Shown: one piece after another, positions 6,319-22,243 of the stretch
Position numbering within the stretch: position 1 is the stretch's first letter
Layout of the letters: each line of letters begins with the position of its first letter
Assembly: GCA_017881075.1 (NCBI GenBank)
Contig: JADGRH010000003.1
Location: 682-64,681, forward strand
DNA from: Minisyncoccota bacterium
GTDB lineage: Bacteria > Patescibacteriota > Minisyncoccia > Phycocordibacterales > CAJBRS01
Direction: 5' to 3'
Length of the DNA: 64,000 bases
Notes under the pieces: model-generated
What the model saw: the letters and a program-made list of their open reading frames with translations, nothing else
The model's database searches: none
Told to the model about the DNA's origin: nothing
Translations under genes and position numbers: made by a program

Positions 6319-6393
6319 GGTGCGAGTGCTAGGATTCGAACCTAGGACCGGGCGTGTATAAGACGCCTGCTCTACCAACTGAGCTACACTCGC
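6319..6393 (-). tRNA. tRNA-Ile with anticodon UAU (reads AUA)
   Basis: A cloverleaf forms on the minus strand as GCGAGTG-TA-GCTCAGTTGGTAGAGC-A-GGCGT-CTTATAC-ACGCC-CGGTC-CTAGG-TTCGAAT-CCTAG-CACTCGC-A. The anticodon loop CUUAUAC gives anticodon UAU. Confidence 0.8.
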
Positions 6394-6536: not shown

Positions 6537-9500
6537 ATGTCTAAAAATCATTACAGACTGATTTTATCAGTTTTATTTCTTGGTGCTTTCTTTTTCGCTC
6601 ACGGAACGTCGGCTCAAACTATTCCGCCGACCATTCTTACTGTAGATATGAGTGTCGGTTCCACCGACGCTTCTACAGGGGGCCAGGTAACCATGCTCCA
6701 GGATTTTTTGCGAGCGACGGGCTACTTTAATCGCTCGTCCACTGGTTACTTCGCCTCTGTTACCAAGGCTTCCGTAAAGCATTTTCAAAGAGATAATAAT
6801 ATCTCTCCGGCAGAAGGATTTGTCGGACCTATCACTAGAGCTAAGATTGCTCTTTTAAGTACTGGAGGTACGGGAGGTATTGGGATTATTGGAGGTATTG
6901 ATCCCATCACCGTCCTTACTCTACCCGCAAGTTCCTCAACAATGGTAAACGTCTCATCGCGCGCTCAAACCTTAAGTGGTGACGGTGTGGCGATTTCAGG
7001 TTTTACTATTAGTGGAAATGGAGGAGGTTGCGGCAGTGCTCTAAATAATGCTGTTAATTGTGGAGCACTATTAATAGAAAGAAAGCAAGTTCTTATTCGC
7101 GGTCTCGGACCGACTCTTCTAAACTTCGGAATCAGTAATGCATTGGTAGATCCTACAATCTCGCTCAGGGACAGTTCCGGTCATGAGATTGCTTCCAACG
7201 ATAATTGGGGAGACGCAGATAGGGCAACTATTCAAGCCAATAACTCGATTGGACCTCTCAACAATAGCGAATCTGCTATTCTCGCTACTCTTGGTCCGGG
7301 TTCTTACACCGTAATACTGTCCGGGAATAATATAAGCAACAATAATAATATTGGGACGGTGGAAGTATATGACATTGCGGGTGATGCCGAACTAACCAGT
7401 GTCAGCACCCGAGGAAGAGTTGATGGAGGTGATGATGTACTCATCAGCGGCATGATCGTCAGATCAAACACCAATCAATCACAGACCTTCGTATTCAGAG
7501 GAATTGGTCCATCCCTCGCGAGCTCTGGGTTGACCGGAGTGATGAGTGATCCGACAATAACACTTTATGATTCTGCTGGCACAGCAATTGCTACAAATAA
7601 CGATTGGATGAGCGGCGGCAACCAATCAGACGACGAAGCAAGGATCCGAGATCTGGGACTAACCCCATCGAACGACAGAGAGTCCGCTTTAATTAAAACT
7701 CTTCCGCCGGGGGCCTACACCATTGTTCAACGCGGAGCAAATAATAGTACGGGACTAGGATTGGTAGAGATCTATAAGGTAGCAGGAGTAAATGTTGTAG
7801 CTTGCATCAGCACTACTCCTCAGGGGCAGTCACAGGGGCAGTCAATAGATTGCGGGCCAGAGATAACTTCGATTAGTCCATCTAACGGTCCTGTGGGCAC
7901 CGAAGTAGTCATTTACGGCTCAGGATTGACCACCTCTACCAATGTTAAATTCGGTTCAGGAGTGATTTCTTCGCCTACTTATCTTACAGCTCCTGATACT
8001 GGTATTATTTCCATTGCTTTTCCTGTTCCAGGCTTTCTACAATTAGCATGTCACTACTTAAATCCTCCTTGTGAAGCTCTCACCCCCCAAGTAACGCCTG
8101 GCGACTATCCTGTCTCTGTCACAAATAGTAACGGCACCAGTAATTCCAAGACTTTCACAGTCACATCTGGTAGCGCAAATAGTCACACCGGCACCCTCAC
8201 AGCCAACCCTAATCCCATCATTACTAATGAAACCCTCGGCGTTACCACTTTAAGTTGGACTACCGATAGCCCATTGGTTGAAGTCCATGTCAATTCTCCT
8301 AGTGGTGCTCTTTTTGCCCGCGCTGGCGGTAGTGGCAGTGCTCCTACCGGAATGTGGGTAGGGAATAATAGCAAATTCTATCTTCAAGATGTTTCTAATA
8401 ATTATTCTCTGACAACCGAACACACCTTGGCCACTCTGACCGTGACGTTGAGTGCTCTTCCTCCCTCAAACGCTCACCCACCAGTTGGATATTTTGACAA
8501 CATCACTACAGACGGCCTCGCTCTCGGGTGGGCCTATGATCCGGATCAATCTGTCACTTCCATTCCAGTTCACTTCTATATTGACGGAACATACGCAGGA
8601 CAAACTACTACCAACACATCAAGACCGGATGTCAATCAAGCGTTCGGAATAACGGGCAATCATGGTTACTCCTGGAGTATCCCCAACTCTTATCGAAATG
8701 GAGTGACGCATCAGATGTCGGTCTATGGTATTGATATCGGTGGGAACGGCAGCACAAATAGTCAGCTGACCAATTCTCCAAGAAGTTTTAATCTCACGGT
8801 TTCTACTCCTCCTCCAACCGCCTCCTTCACCATCAATGGCTCACATGATGTTACTGTCAATGTCGGAGAGGCCCTTAATTCCAGCTGGAGCTCAACCAAC
8901 GGAATTAGCTACAGCTCAACTTATACCAATAGCTGTACCCCTGGCGGTGTCGGAACTGGAGGCATAAACACCGCTTCCGGAAACAGCATCGGCTATCCTG
9001 ACGCAAGTATGGCTGGCTGTGACTTCACTATTACTTACCGAGTAGTGGGAGCTAACGGTCAGGTGGCTACGGCTGTAGTTGTGGATCATGTTAGGCCGGC
9101 TACTACTCTCAATGCTCCCACCGCCTCCTTCACCATCAACGGCTCACACGATGTTACCGTCAATGTCGGAGAGGCCCTTAATTCTAGTTGGAGCTCAACC
9201 AACGGAATTAGTTACAGCTCAACCTATACCAATAGCTGTACACCTGGAGCTACCGGAACTTGGGGTGCAAACACTGCTTCCGGAAACAGCACCGGCTATC
9301 CCGACGCAAGTATGGCTGGCTGTGACTTCACTATTACTTACCGAGTAGTGGGAGCTAACGGTCAGGCTGCTGCCGCTTCAGCCACAGATCATGTTGTGGG
9401 TACACACGCTTCAAACATGTCTGCTCATACCCAGACCGCCAATGTCCTCGATGCTCTGAAAAGTTTTATGGCCAGTGTTGATTTTCAAAATCAAACTGCT

Positions 9501-9573: not shown

Positions 9574-12111
9574 ATGAAAAAAATCTTCCTACTGAGTTTC
9601 GCGCTTATCGGCTTCCTGTCGCTATCTCATCTTGTTGCCGCGGAACCTATTCCTCCGACGATTCTCACTGTTGATCTGCATGATTACAGTTATCCACCAG
9701 AGGCTTCTACCGATGCCAATAGTGGGGGACAGGTGAGCATGCTTCAGAATTTTCTGAACACCGCTAATTATATGCATGGAAATGTCAGCGGATATTTCGG
9801 TTCCATTACCAAAAACGCAGTCGTTGATTTTCAGACAAGAAATGGCCTCTTTCCTGCAAATGGATATGTAGGGCCAATAACCAGAGCAAAAATTGCCACC
9901 GGAATTTATGTAGTAAATCCGGGTAATCTCAACGGACCACGAATCTCCTCTCTCTCCTCTTTCTCTGGAGCTATTGGTAGTCATTTAACAATATATGGAT
10001 CGGGATTCACATCAACCGGTAACAATGTACATATAGGTGACAATGTTGTAAACAATCTCTCATCAACTGGTAATTCTATTTCTTTCTCTGTGTCATCGTC
10101 TGTGACATTAGGATTCCATGGATTGTATGTCGAAAATAGTAACGGCGGTCCTAGCAATATAATGAACTTTATTGTCCTTAGTAACTCCCAAATTGGTGCT
10201 CCCAATCTCTCTTCTCTCTCTCCGAACCCTGCTCCCGTAAGCTCAGAGGTGGATGTTAACGGGTCTGGACAAATAATGAGCACCATCTTCTATCCCGTCT
10301 TAACAGATAACGGATGCAGCCCAGCTATAGTGCCGATTCATTTTAGTCCAACCACTGGACGGCCAATAGTTACTGTTCCTTATTCCTACCCCTGCACAAA
10401 TAGCAATCATCTAGTTGTTCCGGGAAATTATATTGTTCAAGCGCTGGATTCCGGCAACTGGCAGATAAGCAATTCAGTTAATTTTGTGGTCAATGTAGGC
10501 GGAACTTCTTCACCGATCACAGTTCTTTCTCCAAATGGAGGAGAAGGCTGGCAATCAACGCCTACAATTACAGATACCATAAGTGGTTTTGAACAATACA
10601 AGAAAGATGTTACTTGGACAGGCTCGCCGGATTATACAGATCCAACTATCGTAGAAGCTTATTTGGAAAAACAAGTAAGTGGTCAATATATAACAGTGGG
10701 TAGAATTATTCCTCTCGGGTATGGTTCTATTATGTGGGTGGTGGGTGAAGTAAGTAATACTAATTGTGCTCTAATCTTTCCTTCTAATTTGCCAAATAGT
10801 TGTTATAACACAGCGAATATGCAAATCGTTCCTCCTGGTCAATATTGGGTTCGATTGGTGGATAAATTGGCAAACACAACTGATCGTAGCGACTCATCAT
10901 TCACCATAACAGCAGGCACTCAAACTTCTGGTCCTCACATCTCATTTCTTTCTTCTTTCTCCGGTTCAGCTGGTAGTCAGCTAATTATCCGCGGAACGGG
11001 ATTCACCTCAACAGGAAACACAGTAAATTTTGACGTCGGAGGCCCTTCAGGTATCTCCAGCTTTAACGGAATATCTCTTACTGTCAATGTGCCTAACCCT
11101 CTCCCTATGGGTGTTCGTGCGGTATCAGTCTCAAATGCCAACGGTATTTCCAACCCCATCACCTTTGTGGTGACTAGCGGCTATTCGAAAGGAGCTCCCA
11201 ACATCTCTTACATCACTCCTACAGGCTCGACTGGTTCAGAAGTAAAGATTATCGGATCAGGCTTCAGCTCATCAGGAGACAACAGTGTCCTATTTTACCC
11301 TGTTCTCGTCGATGCCGGCTGCAGTCCATACGTTGCCCGATTACTTACTTTGGAAAATGGAATGATTAAATTTGTTGTCCCTGGTTATTACAAATGTTTT
11401 GACAGCGCGGGAGGAAATACCTATCACTCCGTTGTTCCAGGGAATTACATTGTTCAGGCCTTGAATGGTAATTATCAGATAAGTAATGCGGTTAACTTTG
11501 TGGTTACTGCAGGCCCTATAGTTCCGCCCAGTCTTCCATTTATTCAGATCATATCTCCAAATGGAGGAGAGGTGTTCTATCAGACCAATGTTGGCCAGAC
11601 GACAGTCAATACAATTGGTTGGACAAGAGGACTTATTTCAACCGTACATATCTTTCTTACCACAGCTGACGCGACGCCCAAAAACATTCCAAGTTTAGGC
11701 GTGATCTGGGCTGGGGCAACGACCAATTCAGATTCAGTAATGTGGGATGGAAAAACAGTTTGTCAAAACTGGACTGGTTCAAGCGGTACCAATTGTTCCA
11801 CAATTAACCCAGGGTCATACAAAGTCTATATTGTTGGTGATGTGGAAGGAGTGACCAATCAAGCGGTTAACGATCTCAGCGACGCATCTTTTACCATTAC
11901 ATCAAAGACCCCAGCTACACCTACAACTCTAAAATCAAACCCATCGATCAAATCAACGCCAAGTACTTCGACCAATAAGATGCAGAGCGCAAATGCAGTT
12001 TATGCTCTGCAGAGCTTGATCAATCAAGCAAACGGCAATAATCTAACTGCCGAAGTAAAGAACGCTATCAATCTACTATTGAAGAATCTGAAAATATTCG
12101 GCGGGCTCTAG
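9574..12111 (+). CDS. large secreted cell-surface protein, paralogue of the upstream gene
   Basis: The 845-aa protein has a signal peptide and the same PG-binding-like N-terminal module (LQNFLNTANYMHGNVSGYFGSITKNAVVDFQTRNGLFPANGYVGPITRAKI). It also carries repeated IPT/TIG-like modules of the form GSxLTIYGSGFTSTGN. Confidence 0.65.
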   Translation: MKKIFLLSFALIGFLSLSHLVAAEPIPPTILTVDLHDYSYPPEASTDANSGGQVSMLQNFLNTANYMHGNVSGYFGSITKNAVVDFQTRNGLFPANGYVGPITRAKIATGIYVVNPGNLNGPRISSLSSFSGAIGSHLTIYGSGFTSTGNNVHIGDNVVNNLSSTGNSISFSVSSSVTLGFHGLYVENSNGGPSNIMNFIVLSNSQIGAPNLSSLSPNPAPVSSEVDVNGSGQIMSTIFYPVLTDNGCSPAIVPIHFSPTTGRPIVTVPYSYPCTNSNHLVVPGNYIVQALDSGNWQISNSVNFVVNVGGTSSPITVLSPNGGEGWQSTPTITDTISGFEQYKKDVTWTGSPDYTDPTIVEAYLEKQVSGQYITVGRIIPLGYGSIMWVVGEVSNTNCALIFPSNLPNSCYNTANMQIVPPGQYWVRLVDKLANTTDRSDSSFTITAGTQTSGPHISFLSSFSGSAGSQLIIRGTGFTSTGNTVNFDVGGPSGISSFNGISLTVNVPNPLPMGVRAVSVSNANGISNPITFVVTSGYSKGAPNISYITPTGSTGSEVKIIGSGFSSSGDNSVLFYPVLVDAGCSPYVARLLTLENGMIKFVVPGYYKCFDSAGGNTYHSVVPGNYIVQALNGNYQISNAVNFVVTAGPIVPPSLPFIQIISPNGGEVFYQTNVGQTTVNTIGWTRGLISTVHIFLTTADATPKNIPSLGVIWAGATTNSDSVMWDGKTVCQNWTGSSGTNCSTINPGSYKVYIVGDVEGVTNQAVNDLSDASFTITSKTPATPTTLKSNPSIKSTPSTSTNKMQSANAVYALQSLINQANGNNLTAEVKNAINLLLKNLKIFGGL

Positions 12112-15377: not shown

Positions 15378-15466
15378 GGAGAGTTGGCTGAGTGGTCGAA
15401 AGCGCCTCACTGCTAACGAGGTAGGGGTCTTAAAGCCCCTCGTGAGTTCGAATCTCACACTCTCCG
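15378..15466 (+). tRNA. tRNA-Ser (anticodon GCU)
   Basis: GGAGAGT-TG-GCTGAGTGGTCGAAAGC... has the anticodon loop CUGCUAA and the long variable arm GGUAGGGGUCUUAAAGCCCCUC typical of class II tRNA-Ser. The T-arm is GTGAG-TTCGAAT-CTCAC. Confidence 0.9.
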
Positions 15467-16921
15467 CATTGTCTGAAAATCAGAATCTTTTGGTACTTTT
15501 GAGAGTATTGAATACGGACTTTTAAATTGATGTTGAGCCATACTTTGGTTTTTGAAAGATAGGTTCCAAACTATGATTTCTATAATTTCTCGTTTTTCTT
15601 CGTCATTTGCTTTCAAGAAGTCTTTTCTGGCTCTGCTTGCTCGTAAAAAGATTTCTTTAGTCGGTTCCAAGGTGGAAATTTGTTTGCTGTGTTTTTCTTG
15701 TATCTCCTGAATCTGCTTACTCACCAACACCCTCTCATTCTGAACCTCGAGCATTTTTCTGTCGTAAATCTCTTTGGAAATTTGCCGGTCTAGGAATGTA
15801 TCAACTAGGCGGGATTCTTTAGCTGTGAGAGCCTCTAGGCTCATTTTTAGGGTGGATAATATGGATTTAACATAATCCTCATCTAGCCCCAATTTCTCCT
15901 TAGCGGATTGGTACAAGATTTCAATGAGATTTTCGTCAATATCAAGTTTCTCAAAGAGAGAGGCGACCATTGGGTAGAGGGTATTCTCTCGCATGTAGGT
16001 TTTGTGTTCAGTACAAACTCCTTTGCTATTGGTGCAGTAGTAATAATGATGGCCTTTTTTCAGAGCGGCGGTCAGAGAACAGCCGCAACTTTCACAGACC
16101 AGAAAACCCCGAAGCGGAAAGAAATGAGTTTGAGATCGTGGACGATTTTTGTTGTGTAGGATGTTTTGAACTTTATCAAATAATTCTTTTGAGATAAGGG
16201 GCATATGGTTGCCGATATATAGTTTTCCATCTCTTTGCATTAGGCCGGAGTAAAAAGGATTATCTATGAAGCGATGAATATTGCCAGAGTAGAATTTTTT
16301 ACCAGATTCTGCACGAAGCCCCTCTGTGTAAAGAATGTTGGAAATTTCTTTGAAACTATGGCTTCCGGTAGAATATAGTTCAAATGCTCTGATCACATAC
16401 TTTGAATTTACCGGATGAATAGCAATAGTCCTGTTTGCCTTATCATTTAAATATCCGAATGGTGCACGATTCGGCCAATCTCCTTTCTCCAGTTTCGCCC
16501 GATTACCTCGTTTAATATTACTGCTCAAATCCCGTATATACTGACTAGCCATTCCTTGCTCAATACTCATTAGGAGCACATTGTCAGAGGGCAAAAAAGT
16601 TTTCTCAAATGTTTGAATGCACTTTATTTTCTCATTTTGAAGCAACCATTGAATCTGTCCCCCATCAACGGGGTTCCGACTAAGCCTGTCAATTTTCCAA
16701 CAGAGAATTCCATCAGCTTTGCCGGAAGAAATCATTTTAATCATCTCATTAAAAACTGGTCTTCCCGGCTCTTTTGCCGATTTGCTTTCCCTAAAAACTT
16801 TGACGATATTGAGATTTGCCTTTAGAGCCAAAGCCAGTAATTCTTTCTCTTGGGAATCTAAGGAGAGCATTTGCCTGTCCTCTGATTCTGTTGATTTCCG
16901 GCAATAAAGGATAAATTTCAT
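15455..16921 (-). CDS. large serine recombinase (integrase)
   Basis: The 488-aa protein has an N-terminal resolvase-type catalytic domain (YCRKSTESEDRQMLSLDSQ...ADGILCWKIDRLSRN), a recombinase domain and a Cys-rich zinc-ribbon (CESCGCS...YYYC), followed by a coiled coil. Confidence 0.85.
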   Translation of the reverse strand: MKFILYCRKSTESEDRQMLSLDSQEKELLALALKANLNIVKVFRESKSAKEPGRPVFNEMIKMISSGKADGILCWKIDRLSRNPVDGGQIQWLLQNEKIKCIQTFEKTFLPSDNVLLMSIEQGMASQYIRDLSSNIKRGNRAKLEKGDWPNRAPFGYLNDKANRTIAIHPVNSKYVIRAFELYSTGSHSFKEISNILYTEGLRAESGKKFYSGNIHRFIDNPFYSGLMQRDGKLYIGNHMPLISKELFDKVQNILHNKNRPRSQTHFFPLRGFLVCESCGCSLTAALKKGHHYYYCTNSKGVCTEHKTYMRENTLYPMVASLFEKLDIDENLIEILYQSAKEKLGLDEDYVKSILSTLKMSLEALTAKESRLVDTFLDRQISKEIYDRKMLEVQNERVLVSKQIQEIQEKHSKQISTLEPTKEIFLRASRARKDFLKANDEEKREIIEIIVWNLSFKNQSMAQHQFKSPYSILSKVPKDSDFQTMRRV

Positions 16922-16968
16922 GGTTTTTGAATAGTATACTTTTAGTTAATAGAGTTCAAATATGACTA

Positions 16969-17877
16969 CTAAGATAAACCAAGGGAATCCGAATCGGTAA
17001 TGTAGGTGTGGATGTTTTTGTCATAGAGAATCTTGCCGATAACATCAGCCTTGACGATATTGAGACAGGCATTTTTCATCACATACGGGTTTTTAAACTT
17101 CTTCTTTTTCCAGTTCTTCGTTTTGCTTAAAGTCCACTTCCGAAAGACTCTCTGCTGTTTCCGAAAAAGGTTCATCGGTTTTGTATAGCCGTAATAAATC
17201 TCTTTTCTGATTTCTAGTAGCTTTCGTGATCGTCCCCAAAACCGGCCGACCTTTCTATACTCCTCCGGCACTATCTTCTGTTGCCATTTTTTCATATAGC
17301 TTGTGATATACCACCCCATACGGCTTCTGTCTCTTACTGCCTCAACTTTTGTGCCAGCCTTTAAATGTTTTTCATCTTTCGAACCAACGATTTCATACCA
17401 TGTCTTTGCTACCCACTGATGGGGAATATGTTTATCCACCAGAACATGAAAGTGTGGGGCCCCTCTCTCTTGAAATTCAAGTGTCCATAAATATTGATAG
17501 CCCTTTCTTTGAAGATAGATCAGAAAGAGATGTAGATGACTCTTTACCAACGTGCCATTCATTGGATATGACATTGGATAGGTCAGTGTTATGAATACTC
17601 CCAACTTATCACAGACATTCCTTGCTACCATTTCAAATCTCCTTTGCGAACTAGAGCTATACTCAATGATCTCTCCCCTAGGACTACGTTCAAAGTTTCT
17701 ATCGCCCGATTGCCCAGCACTCTGATTTGAAATGCGAATATCCTTTGGCAATTTCGTCATGGTCACGGATTCGTATTGCATTTTGTCTTTCTTTTCACTC
17801 ATCTCTAATTTTTTGATATCTCCATCTATCTTTACCGGATGGCCATAATCGTCAATCCAAAAGTATGTCCTACTCAT
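16969..17877 (-). CDS. rolling-circle replication initiator (HUH endonuclease, phiX174 gpA-like two-tyrosine type)
   Basis: The 302-aa protein carries motif I FITLTY, motif II (HUH) PHFHVLV and motif III MGWYITSYMKK. Two Tyr residues are spaced by three residues, as in Microviridae A proteins. Confidence 0.65.
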   Translation of the reverse strand: MSRTYFWIDDYGHPVKIDGDIKKLEMSEKKDKMQYESVTMTKLPKDIRISNQSAGQSGDRNFERSPRGEIIEYSSSSQRRFEMVARNVCDKLGVFITLTYPMSYPMNGTLVKSHLHLFLIYLQRKGYQYLWTLEFQERGAPHFHVLVDKHIPHQWVAKTWYEIVGSKDEKHLKAGTKVEAVRDRSRMGWYITSYMKKWQQKIVPEEYRKVGRFWGRSRKLLEIRKEIYYGYTKPMNLFRKQQRVFRKWTLSKTKNWKKKKFKNPYVMKNACLNIVKADVIGKILYDKNIHTYITDSDSLGLS

Positions 17878-18094
17878 CTCCCGTATCCTCTGAGGCTGGA
17901 GGCGTTCCGCCCCGAGACACTAAAGTGTCTTCGGGGCCGGTCCGCCTCCTATCCCCAATCTTGGCAAATATGATGAAAAGACTGGCAAATGAATTCAGAT
18001 ATTCCTCGGCTGTCTCATCGGGAATATCCAAATCATATTTTTCTTTGAAGTATGACTGGATTCTCTCCACCAGTAATTGGCTGAATTTTTTCAT
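17870..18094 (-). CDS. hypothetical small protein
   Basis: The 74-aa ORF overlaps the rep start and has no motifs. A hairpin at 18107-18128 lies on the other side of the gene, upstream of its start on the coding strand. Confidence 0.3.
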   Translation of the reverse strand: MKKFSQLLVERIQSYFKEKYDLDIPDETAEEYLNSFASLFIIFAKIGDRRRTGPEDTLVSRGGTPPASEDTGDE

Positions 18095-18173
18095 AAAAAA
18101 TCTCGCACATTGTTTGTGCGAGGCCTTTATATCTTTTCTATGAAGTCAGCAATATGGAAAGAAACTGGGTATA

Positions 18174-19091
18174 TTATGTCTCTTTATCAGTAGGGCTAAA
18201 GATAAGACGATAGCCGAATTTTTTGATGTTTAGAAAAATGTCCGGGTTGCTTGTTTTGGTGGAGGGTAAAATATTAAATCTTTCTTTAAGGTTGCGAATG
18301 ATTAAAGACAAATTATCCCGATATGTTTTTGAGGCAGTTTCCACACCGGGGTTATATGACTTTAAGAGGGTCAAATAATCTGCCTGATAGTCTGGCGAAG
18401 TGTATAGGGTTGAAAAGACCTTAAATTCTTGCGTGCCAAGGGAGAGGGTGCCTTTCAGATCATGGAATACAAAATCACCGGTGCGATTATTAAAGGAAAA
18501 AGGCATTTTTTGTTTCGGCAATTCGGGTAATACTTCTTCCCCGTCAATCCCTAGCTTTTCCAATTCAGCCAAGAAATCAAGATGAAACTTTTTCAGCTCG
18601 TCCGTGTAATACTCCCTCATACCGCCCTTAAACCAGTTGTTATACACTCTCAATTTTTCTTTACTCCATAATCCTGTTTCTTCTGTTCTCTTTAGACCTT
18701 TCACCATAAGGAGGGCAACCGGGTCTAATTTATCTTCCAGGCCAGGAGAGGGGTGGATATATTCCTCCATCGGGCTATATATCCTCACAAACAAGTCAAT
18801 GTAATGTCCGGCATACAAAGAAAGATTTTCAACACGATCGGTCAATGCCGACTGATAATCAAGTTCATACTCGGTTGATTTACGGATACGCCATATCTCA
18901 GAATGCCCCTCATGATATTCCTTTTCACTTTTATCCATGATGGCCGAAAAGACAGGAGTTTTAACAATATGGTCAATGTATGCGTGGATATTTTTATAGA
19001 ACGACGAATCAGAATCGCTTTGGAGGGCGGTTTCGTAGCGGGTTTTAAGGGTGTTTATTATGTTAGACATGATGGGCATGAGTATACACAA
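18174..19091 (-). CDS. hypothetical protein (element cargo)
   Basis: The 305-aa ORF has no recognisable motifs. A hairpin lies downstream at 18107-18128. Confidence 0.4.
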   Translation of the reverse strand: MCILMPIMSNIINTLKTRYETALQSDSDSSFYKNIHAYIDHIVKTPVFSAIMDKSEKEYHEGHSEIWRIRKSTEYELDYQSALTDRVENLSLYAGHYIDLFVRIYSPMEEYIHPSPGLEDKLDPVALLMVKGLKRTEETGLWSKEKLRVYNNWFKGGMREYYTDELKKFHLDFLAELEKLGIDGEEVLPELPKQKMPFSFNNRTGDFVFHDLKGTLSLGTQEFKVFSTLYTSPDYQADYLTLLKSYNPGVETASKTYRDNLSLIIRNLKERFNILPSTKTSNPDIFLNIKKFGYRLIFSPTDKET

Positions 19092-19123
19092 ATTGAGAGG
19101 CTGAGTGTATCAAAACGCGCCCA

Positions 19124-19153
19124 TTGACAGATGAGCCTTAACTATGATATAAT
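19124..19153 (+). promoter_or_regulatory. consensus sigma70 promoter
   Basis: TTGACA at 19124-19129 is followed by an 18-nt spacer and TATAAT at 19148-19153. Both hexamers are perfect consensus. Confidence 0.55.
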
Positions 19154-19159
19154 GCGATG

Positions 19160-19340
19160 AGCTAAGTTCTTCGTCAGAAAGCCTTACTTCGTGATCTCGC
19201 CATAGCTTAGAGCGGCTCCAATCGGGCCTTTCCAAGCTATGGCGATAATGTAGCCCCCTAGCACCCACTGTCGCATTTGCGACCCCTCAACTCACGGGTA
19301 GTGAGAAAACTCATCGGCCATCGGCCGAAGAAAGGAAGTT
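19160..19340 (+). ncRNA. structured 5' RNA segment (leader or independent ncRNA) of unknown class
   Basis: A 12-bp perfect stem TCGCCATAGCTT...AAGCTATGGCGA encloses a 25-nt loop. Further hairpins are GTCGCA-TT-TGCGAC, CTCAC-GGGTA-GTGAG and TCGGCC-A-TCGGCCGA. The segment lies directly downstream of the consensus promoter. Confidence 0.35.
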
Positions 19341-19838
19341 ATGCAAGCACAACTGAAACCAGTGGAAAGTAGTGAACGACTAGAGGCTGCGTTCCAAATG
19401 CCACAAAGCCTCACATTCGATACGGAAGTGGCGACTGAGGAAGGTTTATTCGTCTTCCGTGTCTCAGCAAGCCCGATTCACGTCGAGGGCGACTGTCTGC
19501 GGGTAGATGAATTTGCCCTCAGTAAGTCTCGGAAGGTAGAGGTTATGCGCCGAAGAATCGCTAGCTGGATTCCATTTCGCACAGAAGAATACCCCGTTGA
19601 AGTCTGCGAGTGCATCTGGCAAGTCAACGTGCGATCGTGTGGGACGTTCGTTTTGTCGAGTGAGAAGCCGGTAACGGACCGCACTCACTCATTCGGCATC
19701 CGATCGAAGTTCGTTGGAGCTCTGGCGAACCGGAACATTTTGGTTTCCGACACCCTGCTCGACCGCATGATCGGCCCTCTCGAGAGCAAAGCGATGGAGA
19801 TATTGCGGATAGTGAACCGCTTCCCGTCGTTCTCCTGA
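19341..19838 (+). CDS. hypothetical protein encoded in a GC-rich foreign segment (the coding status is uncertain)
   Basis: The 165-codon ORF follows the SD-like AAAGGAAG 6 nt before ATG. Local GC content is about 54% against about 40% in the flanks. Four antisense ORFs of 60 aa or more overlap it, so the open frames may simply reflect GC-richness. Confidence 0.35.
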   Translation: MQAQLKPVESSERLEAAFQMPQSLTFDTEVATEEGLFVFRVSASPIHVEGDCLRVDEFALSKSRKVEVMRRRIASWIPFRTEEYPVEVCECIWQVNVRSCGTFVLSSEKPVTDRTHSFGIRSKFVGALANRNILVSDTLLDRMIGPLESKAMEILRIVNRFPSFS

Positions 19839-19891
19839 TCGGCAACCCCCATCAGCCGGAAACGAGTTAAACAACCGTCCTCAAGGACAGG

Positions 19892-19929
19892 AAACCGCCT
19901 GTCATGTTGAGGGCGGTTTTTCTTTTTTT
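19892..19929 (+). terminator. rho-independent terminator
   Basis: The stem AAACCGCC/GGCGGTTT around the loop TGTCATGTTGAG is followed by TTTTCTTTTTTTG. Confidence 0.7.
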
Positions 19930-19974
19930 GCTTTCAAACCTTAATGGGATTACACTATTCTTAATAAGGTTTCA

Positions 19975-20436
19975 ATGGATAAAAAATTAATCAGAGAAAA
20001 ACTTAGTTGGTACAGAGGAAATATAATTTCAGACGCAACCGTGATAGAGGTGGCTTTAGGTTGGAAACTAAGAACCTATTTTTTCCCTAAAACGAATAGA
20101 CAGGCAGGAATTTTCTATTGGCATATTATAAACACTTCTCATTTCAATTTTGATAGAAAAATCTCTCTCTATGAGCAAATCCCATACTTTCAAAAACTGA
20201 AGCAGTATATGAAAGTAAAAAAATCCTTAAGGTTTGTTCAGCAAATAAGAAATGCGATTGCTCATTGGCAGTTAGACGAATGGGAGAGTAATGAAAATGA
20301 AATTGTTATTTACCACCCAAACCTGTTTAAAAAAATAAGACTGAATGATAAATCCATGACCGAATTCAAAGAGCATGAAAAATATCTTCTCAAAACTTTC
20401 GGTTGGGAACAGACTCTTAAGGAAAAATACGCTTAA
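19975..20436 (+). CDS. small HEPN-domain protein (Rx4H motif), putative RNase toxin / abortive-infection-like
   Basis: The 153-aa AT-rich ORF has the motif QIRNAIAHWQL at residues 92-97 (R-x4-H), the HEPN catalytic signature. It is the last gene inside the element, before attR. Confidence 0.45.
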   Translation: MDKKLIREKLSWYRGNIISDATVIEVALGWKLRTYFFPKTNRQAGIFYWHIINTSHFNFDRKISLYEQIPYFQKLKQYMKVKKSLRFVQQIRNAIAHWQLDEWESNENEIVIYHPNLFKKIRLNDKSMTEFKEHEKYLLKTFGWEQTLKEKYA

Positions 20437-20597
20437 ATGCAATCTCCTATATTCAAAAAGGTTCCAACTTCATCCCACACTCTCCGCCAAGAAAACTTAG
20501 TATTGGCATGACCCGAGTGCCTGGGATTGTGGGGCGATCTGAATAGAAAAACGGAGAGTCAATTTGGACTCTCCGTTTTGAGGCAGAGGATGAGAAA

Positions 20598-20903
20598 TCA
20601 TTTTTTCTCTTTTGGCTTCTCTTTGGGCGGCTTCGGAAGCGTGCTCTCGGAGACAAAAGTATCTTGTGGTTGCTCACCATCTCGCTTGTATTTATCCAAA
20701 GGACTTGGCGGTCCGCCTTTTTTGAACGGGTTAGGCGGTGTTCCGATGATGCCGTGCTTTTTCATGAGTTTCCTTTCGGTTGGCGGTTTGCTATTCATTC
20801 TCAATGCTACCAGAAATTTCCGTGATTGCCAGAAAGTGACCCCGACCCACATACCTCGATTCAATCTCCAAAATGATGCTAAAATAGCCTTACGGGATCT
20901 CAC
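20598..20903 (-). CDS. hypothetical basic Pro/Lys-rich protein
   Basis: The 101-aa ORF is followed on its own strand by the hairpin AAAACGGAGAGTC-AATTT-GGACTCTCCGTTTT at 20548-20580. Confidence 0.3.
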   Translation of the reverse strand: MRSRKAILASFWRLNRGMWVGVTFWQSRKFLVALRMNSKPPTERKLMKKHGIIGTPPNPFKKGGPPSPLDKYKRDGEQPQDTFVSESTLPKPPKEKPKEKK

Positions 20904-20961
20904 TGCACGGGTACCTAACTCGAGTGTCCCGCCAAGAGATAATTGCTCAACTCATTATTAA

Positions 20962-21285
20962 TTGAATAGAGATATAAAAAATATGAATCACGAAAACCCT
21001 GAAAGTTCACCTCTTACACAAGCCATTAATCTAATGCCTACAGAAATGCGTTGTATTGATGAAACGGTTGAGGGTACTTCTTTAACAGCTGATGATATAA
21101 GATTGGTTGCACTCGAACCAAAAATTGAAACAGCTCTACACGCAATGAGAGGCGATGCTATTCGTGTTGGCGATGAAAAAGCTTCCAAAGAAGAAATCAC
21201 TGAATTTGCCAAACTATTAAAAAATAAAGCAACCCAGTATTCTCAACTTGTTGATACTCTAGAAAATATTTTGACTGAGGCCTAA
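20962..21285 (+). CDS. hypothetical protein
   Basis: The 107-aa ORF is acidic and has no motifs. Confidence 0.3.
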   Translation: MNRDIKNMNHENPESSPLTQAINLMPTEMRCIDETVEGTSLTADDIRLVALEPKIETALHAMRGDAIRVGDEKASKEEITEFAKLLKNKATQYSQLVDTLENILTEA

Positions 21286-21297
21286 GTCATCTAAGTC

Positions 21298-21588
21298 ATG
21301 AACTCCATAATCAAACACCCTAGCGCCTGGCTGCCGATAGTGATATCGCTTTTAGTTTTAGCAACAATACTTATTACTATTACCGTATCCGGTCCTCCCT
21401 CACCTCAGCCGGACGAAGGAGTTGGCGCACACCTATTTCAGATCTGGTTAGCTCTAGAAGTTTTAATGATCGCATTTTTCGCAATTCAGTGGCTTCCAAA
21501 GAAACCAGAGGAAGCAGTCTTAGTTCTAGTGATTCAAATCGTTGCCGTACTTGCAGCATGTGCTCCTGTTTTCTATTTTCATTTATAA
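21298..21588 (+). CDS. hypothetical small membrane protein
   Basis: The 96-aa ORF has three predicted TM helices. Confidence 0.35.
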   Translation: MNSIIKHPSAWLPIVISLLVLATILITITVSGPPSPQPDEGVGAHLFQIWLALEVLMIAFFAIQWLPKKPEEAVLVLVIQIVAVLAACAPVFYFHL

Positions 21589-21598
21589 ATTAGGTATT

Positions 21599-22243
21599 TT
21601 AATGTGCCACCACAATAGCAATAACTTTTCTAGCCCCGGCGCGACGAAGGGTGGCGGAGGCCTCTTTTAATGTCGCGCCGGTGGTCGTGACGTCGTCTAT
21701 CAGGATAATGTTGCGGCCACGAATCTTTTCGGAGTTCTTTACTTGAAAAGAGCCGCGGAGGTTTTGAAGGCGTGACGAACGGGGGAGCGAGCTTTGCGGG
21801 GGAGTGTCTTTTGTTTTGACCAAGACTTTTATTTCGAGGGTGAAGATGTTGTTGCGGTCGAGTCGCATCATTTCTTTAGCTAGATTTTCTGTTTGGTTGT
21901 AGCCGCGCGCCTTTTGGCGCGCGGCTGACAATGGTATCGGAATCAGGATCGGCGAAACGAAGTGGCTGAATTGGCTCAAGTCTTCCAATTCAGCCACAAG
22001 TTCCGAGTAAAGTATCTCTGCCAGAAGCCGGCTGACCTTCCGATGATTTCTGTATTTGATCTGCCAGATAGCAGCTCGCACCAAAGGATCTTTATAACTG
22101 AAGATGGCCAGGACGGTTTCCTGTTTTCTCTGAACACTCTTCTCTGCCCGATGGTAAAAATCGGCCACAGAGAGCTCCTCAAGCATTCGCAATTCGCTTG
22201 ATCGGGGCAGGAAGAGGTCGATTAGATTTCGCCACCAGAGCAT
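21599..22243 (-). CDS. comF: ComF-family protein (phosphoribosyltransferase domain, competence-associated)
   Basis: The C-terminal PRTase motif is NIILIDDVTTTGATL. The length and context match ComFC, adjacent to the pilus genes. Confidence 0.75.
   Translation of the reverse strand: MLWWRNLIDLFLPRSSELRMLEELSVADFYHRAEKSVQRKQETVLAIFSYKDPLVRAAIWQIKYRNHRKVSRLLAEILYSELVAELEDLSQFSHFVSPILIPIPLSAARQKARGYNQTENLAKEMMRLDRNNIFTLEIKVLVKTKDTPPQSSLPRSSRLQNLRGSFQVKNSEKIRGRNIILIDDVTTTGATLKEASATLRRAGARKVIAIVVAH

Follow-up and report, generated by a model that had tools for sequence, protein, structure and literature searches.

The 64-kb stretch of contig JADGRH010000003.1 from a Minisyncoccota bacterium that is analyzed here (the window, to which all coordinates without a locus label refer) contains, at the 3' end of an intact tRNA-Ser(GCU) gene, a 5,020-bp element (15468-20487) that encodes a large serine recombinase (LSR), a rolling-circle replication initiator (Rep) of the HUH type and four further open reading frames (ORFs). 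The features of the element and its junctions are listed in Table 1. An earlier reading of the window alone (the original prediction) had proposed a Rep-bearing element of about 5 kb, integrated at the 3' end of tRNA-Ser(GCU) by the LSR, and this is upheld by the presence of the same module at tRNA ends in more than ten other genomes. The element is very likely a small plasmid-like episome of Patescibacteria in its integrated form, not a virus, inserted by its LSR at the tRNA gene's 3' end.

Table 1. Coordinates of the integrated element, its junctions and related features
Feature	Coordinates	Strand	Evidence or remarks
tRNA-Ser(GCU), intact	15378-15467	+	ARAGORN (anticodon GCT); Rfam tRNA, 56.2 bits
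attL copy of the repeat, ATCTCACACTCTCCGC	15452-15467	.	last 16 nt of tRNA-Ser(GCU); element starts at 15468
LSR, 488 aa when integrated	15455-16921	-	Pfam Resolvase, Recombinase and Zn_ribbon_recom; PHROG 95
HUH rolling-circle Rep, 302 aa	16969-17877	-	PF23343; PHROG 3419; motif residues
orf74, small conserved protein	17870-18094	-	8-nt overlap with the start of Rep; tblastn matches in relatives
Terminator-like hairpin between orf305 and orf74	18102-18122	-	
orf305, DNA-binding: N-terminal helical bundle and C-terminal OmpR/PhoB-type winged helix	18174-19091	-	
Intergenic hairpin cluster	19092-19340	.	strongest stem 19197-19245; inverted repeats
orf165, cargo, 53% GC block	19341-19838	+	13 homologue clusters; AlphaFold2 (AF2) mean confidence (pLDDT) 88.9; GC at third codon positions (GC3) 0.61
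orf153, cargo	19975-20436	+	RNAIAH (R-x4-H); PF18736 HEPN 0.0055, below cutoff
P arm of attP, 14 codons and stop (WDEVGTFLNIGDCI, stop)	20433-20477	-	in-silico junction; tail conserved family-wide
attR copy of the repeat, ATCCCACACTCTCCGC	20472-20487	.	element ends at 20487; host flank B' from 20488
L004-type hairpin of related elements	L004:9120-9480; L005:1880-2240; L006:9241-9610; L007:9155-9500; L009:1735-2095		

The end of the tRNA gene is repeated at the far end of the element, as the original prediction had noticed for its last 15 nt: the attL and attR copies are identical at 15 of 16 positions, and the exact 12-mer CACACTCTCCGC that they share occurs at these two places only in the window, where chance alone would give 0.09 (two matches were reached in one of 100 shuffles). 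The locus has the features of a site-specific integrative element, namely an integrase gene at one end, an intact target, and a copy of the end of the target at the other end; the last nucleotides of tRNA-Ser(GCU) constitute the left arm of attB and the recombination core. The LSR has matches to Resolvase (PF00239, 3.8e-21), Recombinase (PF07508, 8e-14) and Zn_ribbon_recom (PF13408, 26.5 bits with a cutoff of 25.3), belongs to PHROG 95 (integrase, 2.5e-78), and carries its predicted catalytic serine in an N-terminal YCRKST motif. The size and position of this gene are as originally described, but it does more than abut the tRNA gene: the two overlap by 13 nt, with the last three codons and the stop of the LSR inside the tRNA/att repeat and the stop codon itself (TGA, 15455-15457) supplied by the T-arm of the tRNA.

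When the ends of the element are joined in silico (20487 to 15468), the tRNA-derived TGA becomes TGG and the LSR frame gains 14 codons, ending in ...MRRVWDEVGTFLNIGDCI and a stop, so that the reconstructed enzyme has 502 aa as encoded by the circle and 488 aa in the integrated state. Corresponding tails were reconstructed for relatives, whose loci are labelled L001-L107 (L002, ...MRRVWYEVGTTLLAIIDKS; L004, ...MRGVWDDVRIALSLAYIQ; L005, ...MRGAWDDVRIALIMT; L009, ...MRGAWDDVRMALSLVWI; L023, ...RALWDDIRIILTASSVK; each followed by a stop), and they share a core of the form W-D-D/E-V (L002, MRRVWYEVGTTLL..; L004, MRGVWDDVRIALS..; L005 and L009, MRGAWDDVR..; L023, RALWDDIRII..). The tail peptide is also encoded at the P arms of L006, L008 (twice) and L085. 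The codons of the tail vary between subfamilies in synonymous or conservative ways (GAT/GAC, GTT/GTC, GAA/GAT), which argues that the arm is constrained as a coding sequence, whereas the integrated copies of the LSR end in mutually unrelated residues encoded by the tRNA genes (V-stop, G-stop, R-stop, WDSNPRSS...). The cross-junction frame requires a circle or a tandem arrangement, and its conservation is therefore evolutionary evidence that the circle is a regular stage of the life cycle. As reconstructed, attP would lie within the LSR gene, and the full-length enzyme would be encoded by the excised circle only. In L007 a physical P-core-P' junction has been kept (8475-8497) together with 55 nt that remain, in frame, of a second LSR gene; in L006 a perfect direct repeat of 176 bp, composed of the tRNA end and a 152-bp spacer, flanks the element (96-271 and 6789-6964 of the oriented copy); and extra P arms or duplicated ends are present in L006, L008 (two P arms) and L085 (at 1825 and 2614). 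The junction of L007 and the duplicated ends and extra P arms of the other three are signs that these att sites have been used repeatedly or in tandem.

The far ends of related elements were located by all-against-all blastn; a search for attR by the repeat of the tRNA end found none in the relatives, where the cores are 4-7 nt, nor did a search by the inverted-repeat symmetry of the P' arm. Eight elements, including that of the window, are delimited at both ends and measure 4,073-6,870 bp, with a conserved P arm and differing cargo. An exact match of attL with attR extends over 12 nt in the window, 6-7 nt in L002, 5 nt in L006 and 4-5 nt in L004, L005, L007, L009 and L023, and the only sequence common to attL and attR across all eight is CCGC. 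Short shared cores are a feature of serine-integrase att sites, and those found here all contain CCGC. Serine recombinases make a 2-nt crossover, and the 4-7 nt shared in the seven relatives fit such an enzyme. The long repeat of the window, which had been taken for a hallmark of tyrosine integrases, does not have that meaning: the short cores of the relatives imply that its length is incidental, the end of tRNA-Ser(GCU) resembling the P arm of the element by chance. The crossover probably falls within the terminal CCGC (15464-15467), and the body of the tRNA is wholly host-derived and intact because the exchange takes place in the last bases of the gene. All eight far ends have the conserved P arm, which terminates in CCGC (...CTTCATCCCACACTCTCCGC in the window element, ...CATCGTCCCACACTCCCCGC in L004) and gives way to unrelated host sequence, and a 28-nt stretch of the window attR is 96% identical to the attR of L002. 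The predicted attP junction of the window element (20487 joined to 15468) is ...AAAGGTTCCAACTTCATCCCACACTCTCCGC followed by ATTGTCTGAAAATCAGAATCTTTTGGTACT, and the predicted attB junction of its host (15467 joined to 20488) is ...CCCTCGTGAGTTCGAATCTCACACTCTCCGC followed by CAAGAAAACTTAGTATTGGCATGACCCGAG, so that the predicted empty site consists of tRNA-Ser(GCU) followed directly by CAAGAAAACTTAG.

A protein search with the Rep returned 625 homologues, many of them on contigs of 4-7 kb, and a scan with a Rep profile of one genome per species found the Rep family in many phyla. The block of orf74, Rep and LSR is present at no fewer than 12 other patescibacterial loci (L001-L011, L023, L100), and the full module was found only in genomes of Patescibacteria type (Paceibacterota, Saccharibacteria, Taylorbacteria and further bins). 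The closest relatives by Rep are L001 (78% identity) and L002 and L003 (75%); the orf74-Rep-LSR block of these is about 73-75% identical in nucleotides, with different accessory genes. Apart from L001, where no tRNA is present, all loci with an entire LSR gene have its 3' end adjoining or overlapping that of a tRNA gene: Ser-ACT in L002 and L003, Ser-TGA in L004-L007, Ser-GGA in L009, Ser-CGA in L011, Ser-GCT in L023, Arg-CCG in L010 and Leu-GAG in L100. At tRNA-Ser targets the junction is always ...CCGC followed by AT and the conserved element arm P', and the LSR clade switches among tRNAs for serine, leucine and arginine at 50-75% protein identity. The presence of the module against tRNA 3' ends in more than ten genomes, with different flanks and cargo and a conserved P arm, supports integration. 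No gene is common to the accessory regions of the family, the products of which are proteases, secreted proteins and membrane proteins; L007, at 4.07 kb the smallest member, has a single cargo ORF. Many family members lie on contigs of 4-6 kb that end about 50-160 nt from the element boundaries in independent assemblies (L002, L003, L100, L104, L105), a pattern expected if a population contains occupied sites alongside empty ones or a free form, so that the assembly graph is interrupted. ARAGORN assigns the anticodon ACT (ACU) to tRNA-Ser genes at L002:5209-5296, L003:5191-5278 and L023:12446-12533, the first two of which are integration targets; a serine tRNA with A34 is unusual in bacteria.

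The Rep, which the original prediction had proposed to check against HUH profiles, passes the threshold of one, Pfam PF23343 (REP_ORF2-G2P; 43.7 bits, cutoff 27.8, E = 3.6e-11), and matches PHROG 3419 (rolling circle DNA replication initiation, 1.2e-12). The three rolling-circle motifs attributed to it earlier are all in place: motif I, FITLTY (aa 95-100, nt 17578-17595); the HUH motif, HFHVLV (aa 142-147, nt 17437-17454); and the two-tyrosine motif YxxxY..K, YITSYMKK (aa 190-197, nt 17287-17310). Residues H142, H144, Y190, Y194 and K197 are invariant in an alignment of 19 homologues with identities down to 33%. Pfam RepSA gives a partial match of 21.9 bits, under its cutoff of 34, and the matches of the Rep profile to solved structures are to HUH proteins, all sub-threshold. 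Distant relatives of the Rep (27-33% identity) are encoded by small plasmids (5-8 kb) of actinomycetes and Bacillus. In the sister elements L104-L107, orf305, orf74 and the LSR are retained and the Rep slot is refilled, with Phage_CRI in L104 (4894-5937) and Phage_rep_O in L105-L107 (L105:1290-1808; L106:1341-1859); in the latter three, Phage_rep_O is followed by an LSR 72% identical to that of the window, against tRNA-Leu(TAA). Acceptance of three unrelated replication initiators by one slot identifies it as the replication-initiator slot of an episome. Elements at L012, L031, L067 and L074, which belong to Nitrospirota, Spirochaetota and others, have the same Rep family (30-42% identity; Rep at about position 10001), and 2-5 kb downstream of it they have a tyrosine integrase (Phage_integrase, 1e-20 to 1e-30) in place of an LSR and an adjacent gene for tRNA-Arg, tRNA-Leu or tRNA-Gly. 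The combination of the same Rep family with tyrosine integrases in other phyla suggests that the LSR is a solution specific to Patescibacteria.

In the life cycle proposed for this plasmid-like element, the LSR would recombine attP, in which the P arm (approximately 20446-20487) continues into the P' arm from 15468, with attB at the extreme 3' end of tRNA-Ser(GCU). Strand exchange in the last four bases, CCGC, would leave the tRNA intact; integration would exchange the conserved 14-residue tail of the LSR for a stop encoded by the tRNA, shortening the enzyme from 502 to 488 aa, and excision would restore the tail. By analogy with its family, the two-tyrosine HUH Rep should nick the excised double-stranded circle at an origin, probably in the hairpin cluster, for rolling-circle replication, and the element may move between cells. 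The products of orf305 and orf74 would be accessory or regulatory proteins of the backbone, and those of orf165 and orf153 would be cargo. A further-reaching proposal, rather doubtful at present, is that these elements are natural integrative plasmids of Patescibacteria whose LSRs form a clade directed to tRNA 3' ends, in which the circle-only tail acts as a state switch of directionality, stability or activity, either without a separate directionality factor or beside one.

Of the remaining genes, orf74 lies upstream of the initiator in all members of the family (tblastn identities of 37-74% in L001-L011, L023 and L104-L107) and had no solid family match in scans of Pfam, PHROG, PADLOC and NCBIfam; its position makes it a candidate regulator or directionality factor. 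Homologues of orf305 (42-66% identity) occupy the same position in the sister elements, and this positional conservation marks it as a backbone gene, not cargo; it is probably the regulator of the element. The hairpin cluster upstream of orf305 folds as DNA with z scores of -3.2 (minus strand) and -2.4 (plus strand), contains a perfect sigma70-type promoter (12/12) at 19124-19153 on the plus strand, and is a candidate for the replication origin (double-strand and/or single-strand origin). The cargo gene orf165 is a real protein-coding gene, with homologues in 13 clusters at 26-36% identity and an AF2 model that has no significant or informative structural match. The GC-rich block of the original prediction (54%) is there, peaking at 0.545 in 19400-19799, but the background of roughly 40% GC is not: the window has 43% GC and the whole element 41%. 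The other cargo gene, orf153, possibly encodes a HEPN-domain protein and may act as a toxin or in abortive infection; the stop codons of orf153 and, on the opposite strand, of the LSR tail exon overlap. None of the four non-core ORFs had a match in PADLOC or NCBIfam. In the L004 subfamily an extended hairpin of about 260 nt, rich in GC (55-58%), lies just upstream of orf74; across five sequences, 30 of its 88 predicted pairs show compensatory changes, and it has the form expected of a single-strand origin or could be a structured RNA of unknown type. Rfam found no RNA family in the window element beyond the tRNA, and none in the L004-type hairpin.

To the right of the element, about 470 nt (20488-20960) contain no recognizable gene, and 20488-21600, apart from roughly its first 20-55 nt, which are common with L085, is not similar to any retrieved locus. 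A terminator-like hairpin, CGGAGAGTC-AATTTG-GACTCTCCG followed by TTTT, is located at 20552-20579, about 65 nt past attR, and its stem resembles the acceptor stem of tRNA-Ser (GGAGAGT/ACTCTCC); it may be the terminator of the tRNA or a relic of an older insertion. Elsewhere in the window a tRNA-Ile with anticodon TAT (UAU; 6319-6393, minus strand) is conserved in the host lineage (L096:7632-7705; L098:20531-20605). A tRNA-Ile(UAU) is an uncommon bacterial means of reading AUA.

The comparison of host loci is consistent with the predicted mobility of the element. By the homologues of its RecG, the host is a bacterium of Paceibacterota/Parcubacteria type. As the original prediction had anticipated, the segment of 15.4-20.5 kb is not syntenic in all relatives: on the contig of P0128, a RecG homologue, RecG is about 2 kb from ComF-PilM, compared with 6.75 kb in the window (1.73 kb minus the element), and L098 has a tRNA-Ser(GCT) 87% identical to that of the window with no adjoining LSR or Rep. 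Several small contigs were considered as free circles and rejected: L002, L003, L100, L105 and L106 are integrated copies that include the tRNA, and circularization of L001, which has partial ORFs at both ends, would produce a junction that encodes ...TMRGHSC-stop, not the tail, and that is of attL type with a non-tRNA arm.

Several results weigh against an integrative rolling-circle episome. A degenerate pattern for attB, attP, attL and attR had four matches in JGI metagenome contigs, with no empty attB and no free attP among them; three of the four are chance matches, and the other is L085, a different element in the homologous site of a related host, which has flank B' in common with the window. 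A pattern specific to attP had no match in IMG/VR, and terminal overlaps are absent from the small contigs L001-L003, L100-L102 and L104-L107. In the closest host relative, L096, the locus is rearranged and offers no clean comparison of synteny. The match of the LSR to Zn_ribbon_recom is marginal; conservation of the P arm could be due in part to binding of the recombinase rather than to coding; and no nick site or origin is identifiable by sequence in the window element, whose hairpin region shows no homology to that of the L004 type. Upstream of orf74, likewise, no conserved nick site was found, only a promoter-like box common to L001 and L002.

The failure to recover either an excised form or an empty site from JGI contigs and IMG/VR is what would be seen if there were no mobile element at all, the repeat being due to chance or derived from the tRNA, and the recombinase and Rep being resident or decaying chromosomal genes. 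This explanation is hardly credible, given the low chance expectation of the 12-mer, the recurrence of module, junction and P arm in more than ten unrelated flanking contexts, the full length of all ORFs of the element relative to their homologues, and the conserved frame of the LSR across the junction. Mobility of another kind would be expected of an integrative mobilizable element (IME) in which the HUH protein is mainly a relaxase, nicking an origin of transfer (oriT) for passage through the type IV secretion system (T4SS) of the host or a neighbour, as in the IMEs and integrative conjugative elements (ICEs) of Firmicutes. IMEs with serine integrases and relaxases of the rolling-circle replication type are known (PMC5704250), and VirB4-type T4SS genes are present in most genomes of the candidate phyla radiation (CPR), where relaxases are mostly missing (preprint 10.1101/2025.01.22.634366). 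Scans with Pfam and NCBIfam, however, found no coupling protein, oriT or T4SS gene in the element, the Rep slot of L105-L107 holds Phage_rep_O, which is not a relaxase family, and the nearest Rep relatives of characterized type are the Reps of small plasmids and phages, all of which makes a relaxase-based element quite improbable.

Somewhat more can be said for a defective or satellite prophage of a filamentous (inovirus-like) phage, the single-stranded DNA (ssDNA) circles of which would be packaged by coat proteins of a helper, like RS1/CTXphi. PF23343 is the Rep family of inoviruses and plectroviruses; the best match of the Rep among GenBank phages is to an Inoviridae sp. (36% identity); a circular 7.6-kb IMG/VR genome with a 123-nt terminal overlap (L088) combines this Rep family with Zot; phiRSM inoviruses enter the 3' end of tRNA-Ser by means of a serine recombinase (PMC3816273); and inoviruses have been reported in CPR bacteria (PMC6813254). 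Yet Pfam and PHROG scans that detect Zot in L088 as a control found no Zot/pI, P-loop protein or conserved small coat-like gene in the window element, and the cargo ORFs of six relatives include no Zot and no gene common to the family. The element family is absent from IMG/VR, where a scan with the Rep profile found distant Reps only (at most 38% identity), true inoviruses among them, and the acceptance of a Rep_O-type (non-HUH) initiator by the same backbone suggests the lifestyle of a plasmid rather than of an ssDNA phage. A satellite phage is therefore improbable, and the ssDNA-phage-like replicon offered as an alternative in the original prediction is not sustained: the element has neither Zot nor a coat gene, its cargo is variable and its initiator can be swapped.

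The integrative plasmid-like episome favoured here would be of interest for several reasons. What sets the family apart is an entire clade of LSRs that target tRNA ends and have attP in their own coding sequence; such a clade would make testable, with predictable attP and attB, what has so far been a rare indication from computation. Large serine integrases are prized as tools of genome engineering, and the location of attP inside the integrase frame, with a conserved tail encoded by the circle only, suggests a new coupling of recombinase properties to the state of integration. To our knowledge, almost no plasmids or genetic tools are available for Patescibacteria, and a replicon of 4-7 kb that brings its own initiator and integrase and has defined att sites is an obvious basis for vectors. 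One backbone with three unrelated initiators, together with one Rep family that is associated with tyrosine integrases elsewhere, is a clear illustration of how small integrative replicons evolve by exchange of modules. Literature searches turned up no account of this family, or of small integrative replicons of Patescibacteria.

The LSR of the window has the same domain architecture and short att cores as the LSRs phiC31, Bxb1, A118, CcrAB and XisF, and its matches to the XisF and CcrA/B/C models of NCBIfam are below cutoff. All characterized large serine integrases that we know of have protein-coding or intergenic targets. A survey of integrative elements attributed tRNA targets to large serine integrases computationally in 14 of 297 cases, stating that this "has not been reported previously" and requires experimental proof (PMC7192596). 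The view that a serine recombinase at a tRNA 3' end is unusual accordingly holds for LSRs, but there is a precedent for a small recombinase in phiRSM1 and phiRSM3, inoviruses of Ralstonia, which likewise are rolling-circle replicons and encode a serine recombinase that inserts them at a tRNA-Ser 3' end, in their case that of tRNA-Ser(UCG) (PMC3816273). These are the nearest described system: the phiRSM core, TGGCGGAGAGGGT, which is ...CTCTCCGCCA on the tRNA strand, covers the same tRNA region as CACACTCTCCGC of the window element. The recombinase of phiRSM is of the small resolvase/invertase type, whereas that of the window element is a three-domain LSR of 488-502 aa; structural and Zot genes are part of phiRSM, a 9-kb virus, but are absent from the window element; and the host phyla differ. 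The integrative conjugative elements of actinomycetes (AICEs) of the pSAM2 type are likewise small and reside in tRNA 3' ends, and they excise to a circle and replicate by rolling circle by means of their own HUH Rep (PMC2440964), as is predicted for the window element. AICEs have a tyrosine integrase with Xis and an FtsK-like transfer gene, whereas the window element has a serine recombinase, no FtsK-like or other transfer gene, and a RepSA match below cutoff. We are aware of no other LSR with attP within its own reading frame. Location of attP within the integrase gene itself or a regulator gene is familiar from Myxococcus phage Mx8 (IntP/IntX), SSV1 and the integration-dependent immunity of mycobacteriophages, where the proteins concerned are tyrosine integrases or repressors: integration rewrites the C-terminus of a protein of the element, with the result that its free and integrated states have different products, as is predicted here, where the remodelled protein would be the LSR. 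ORF13 of phiRSS0, which is truncated upon integration (PMC3816273), is a further example.

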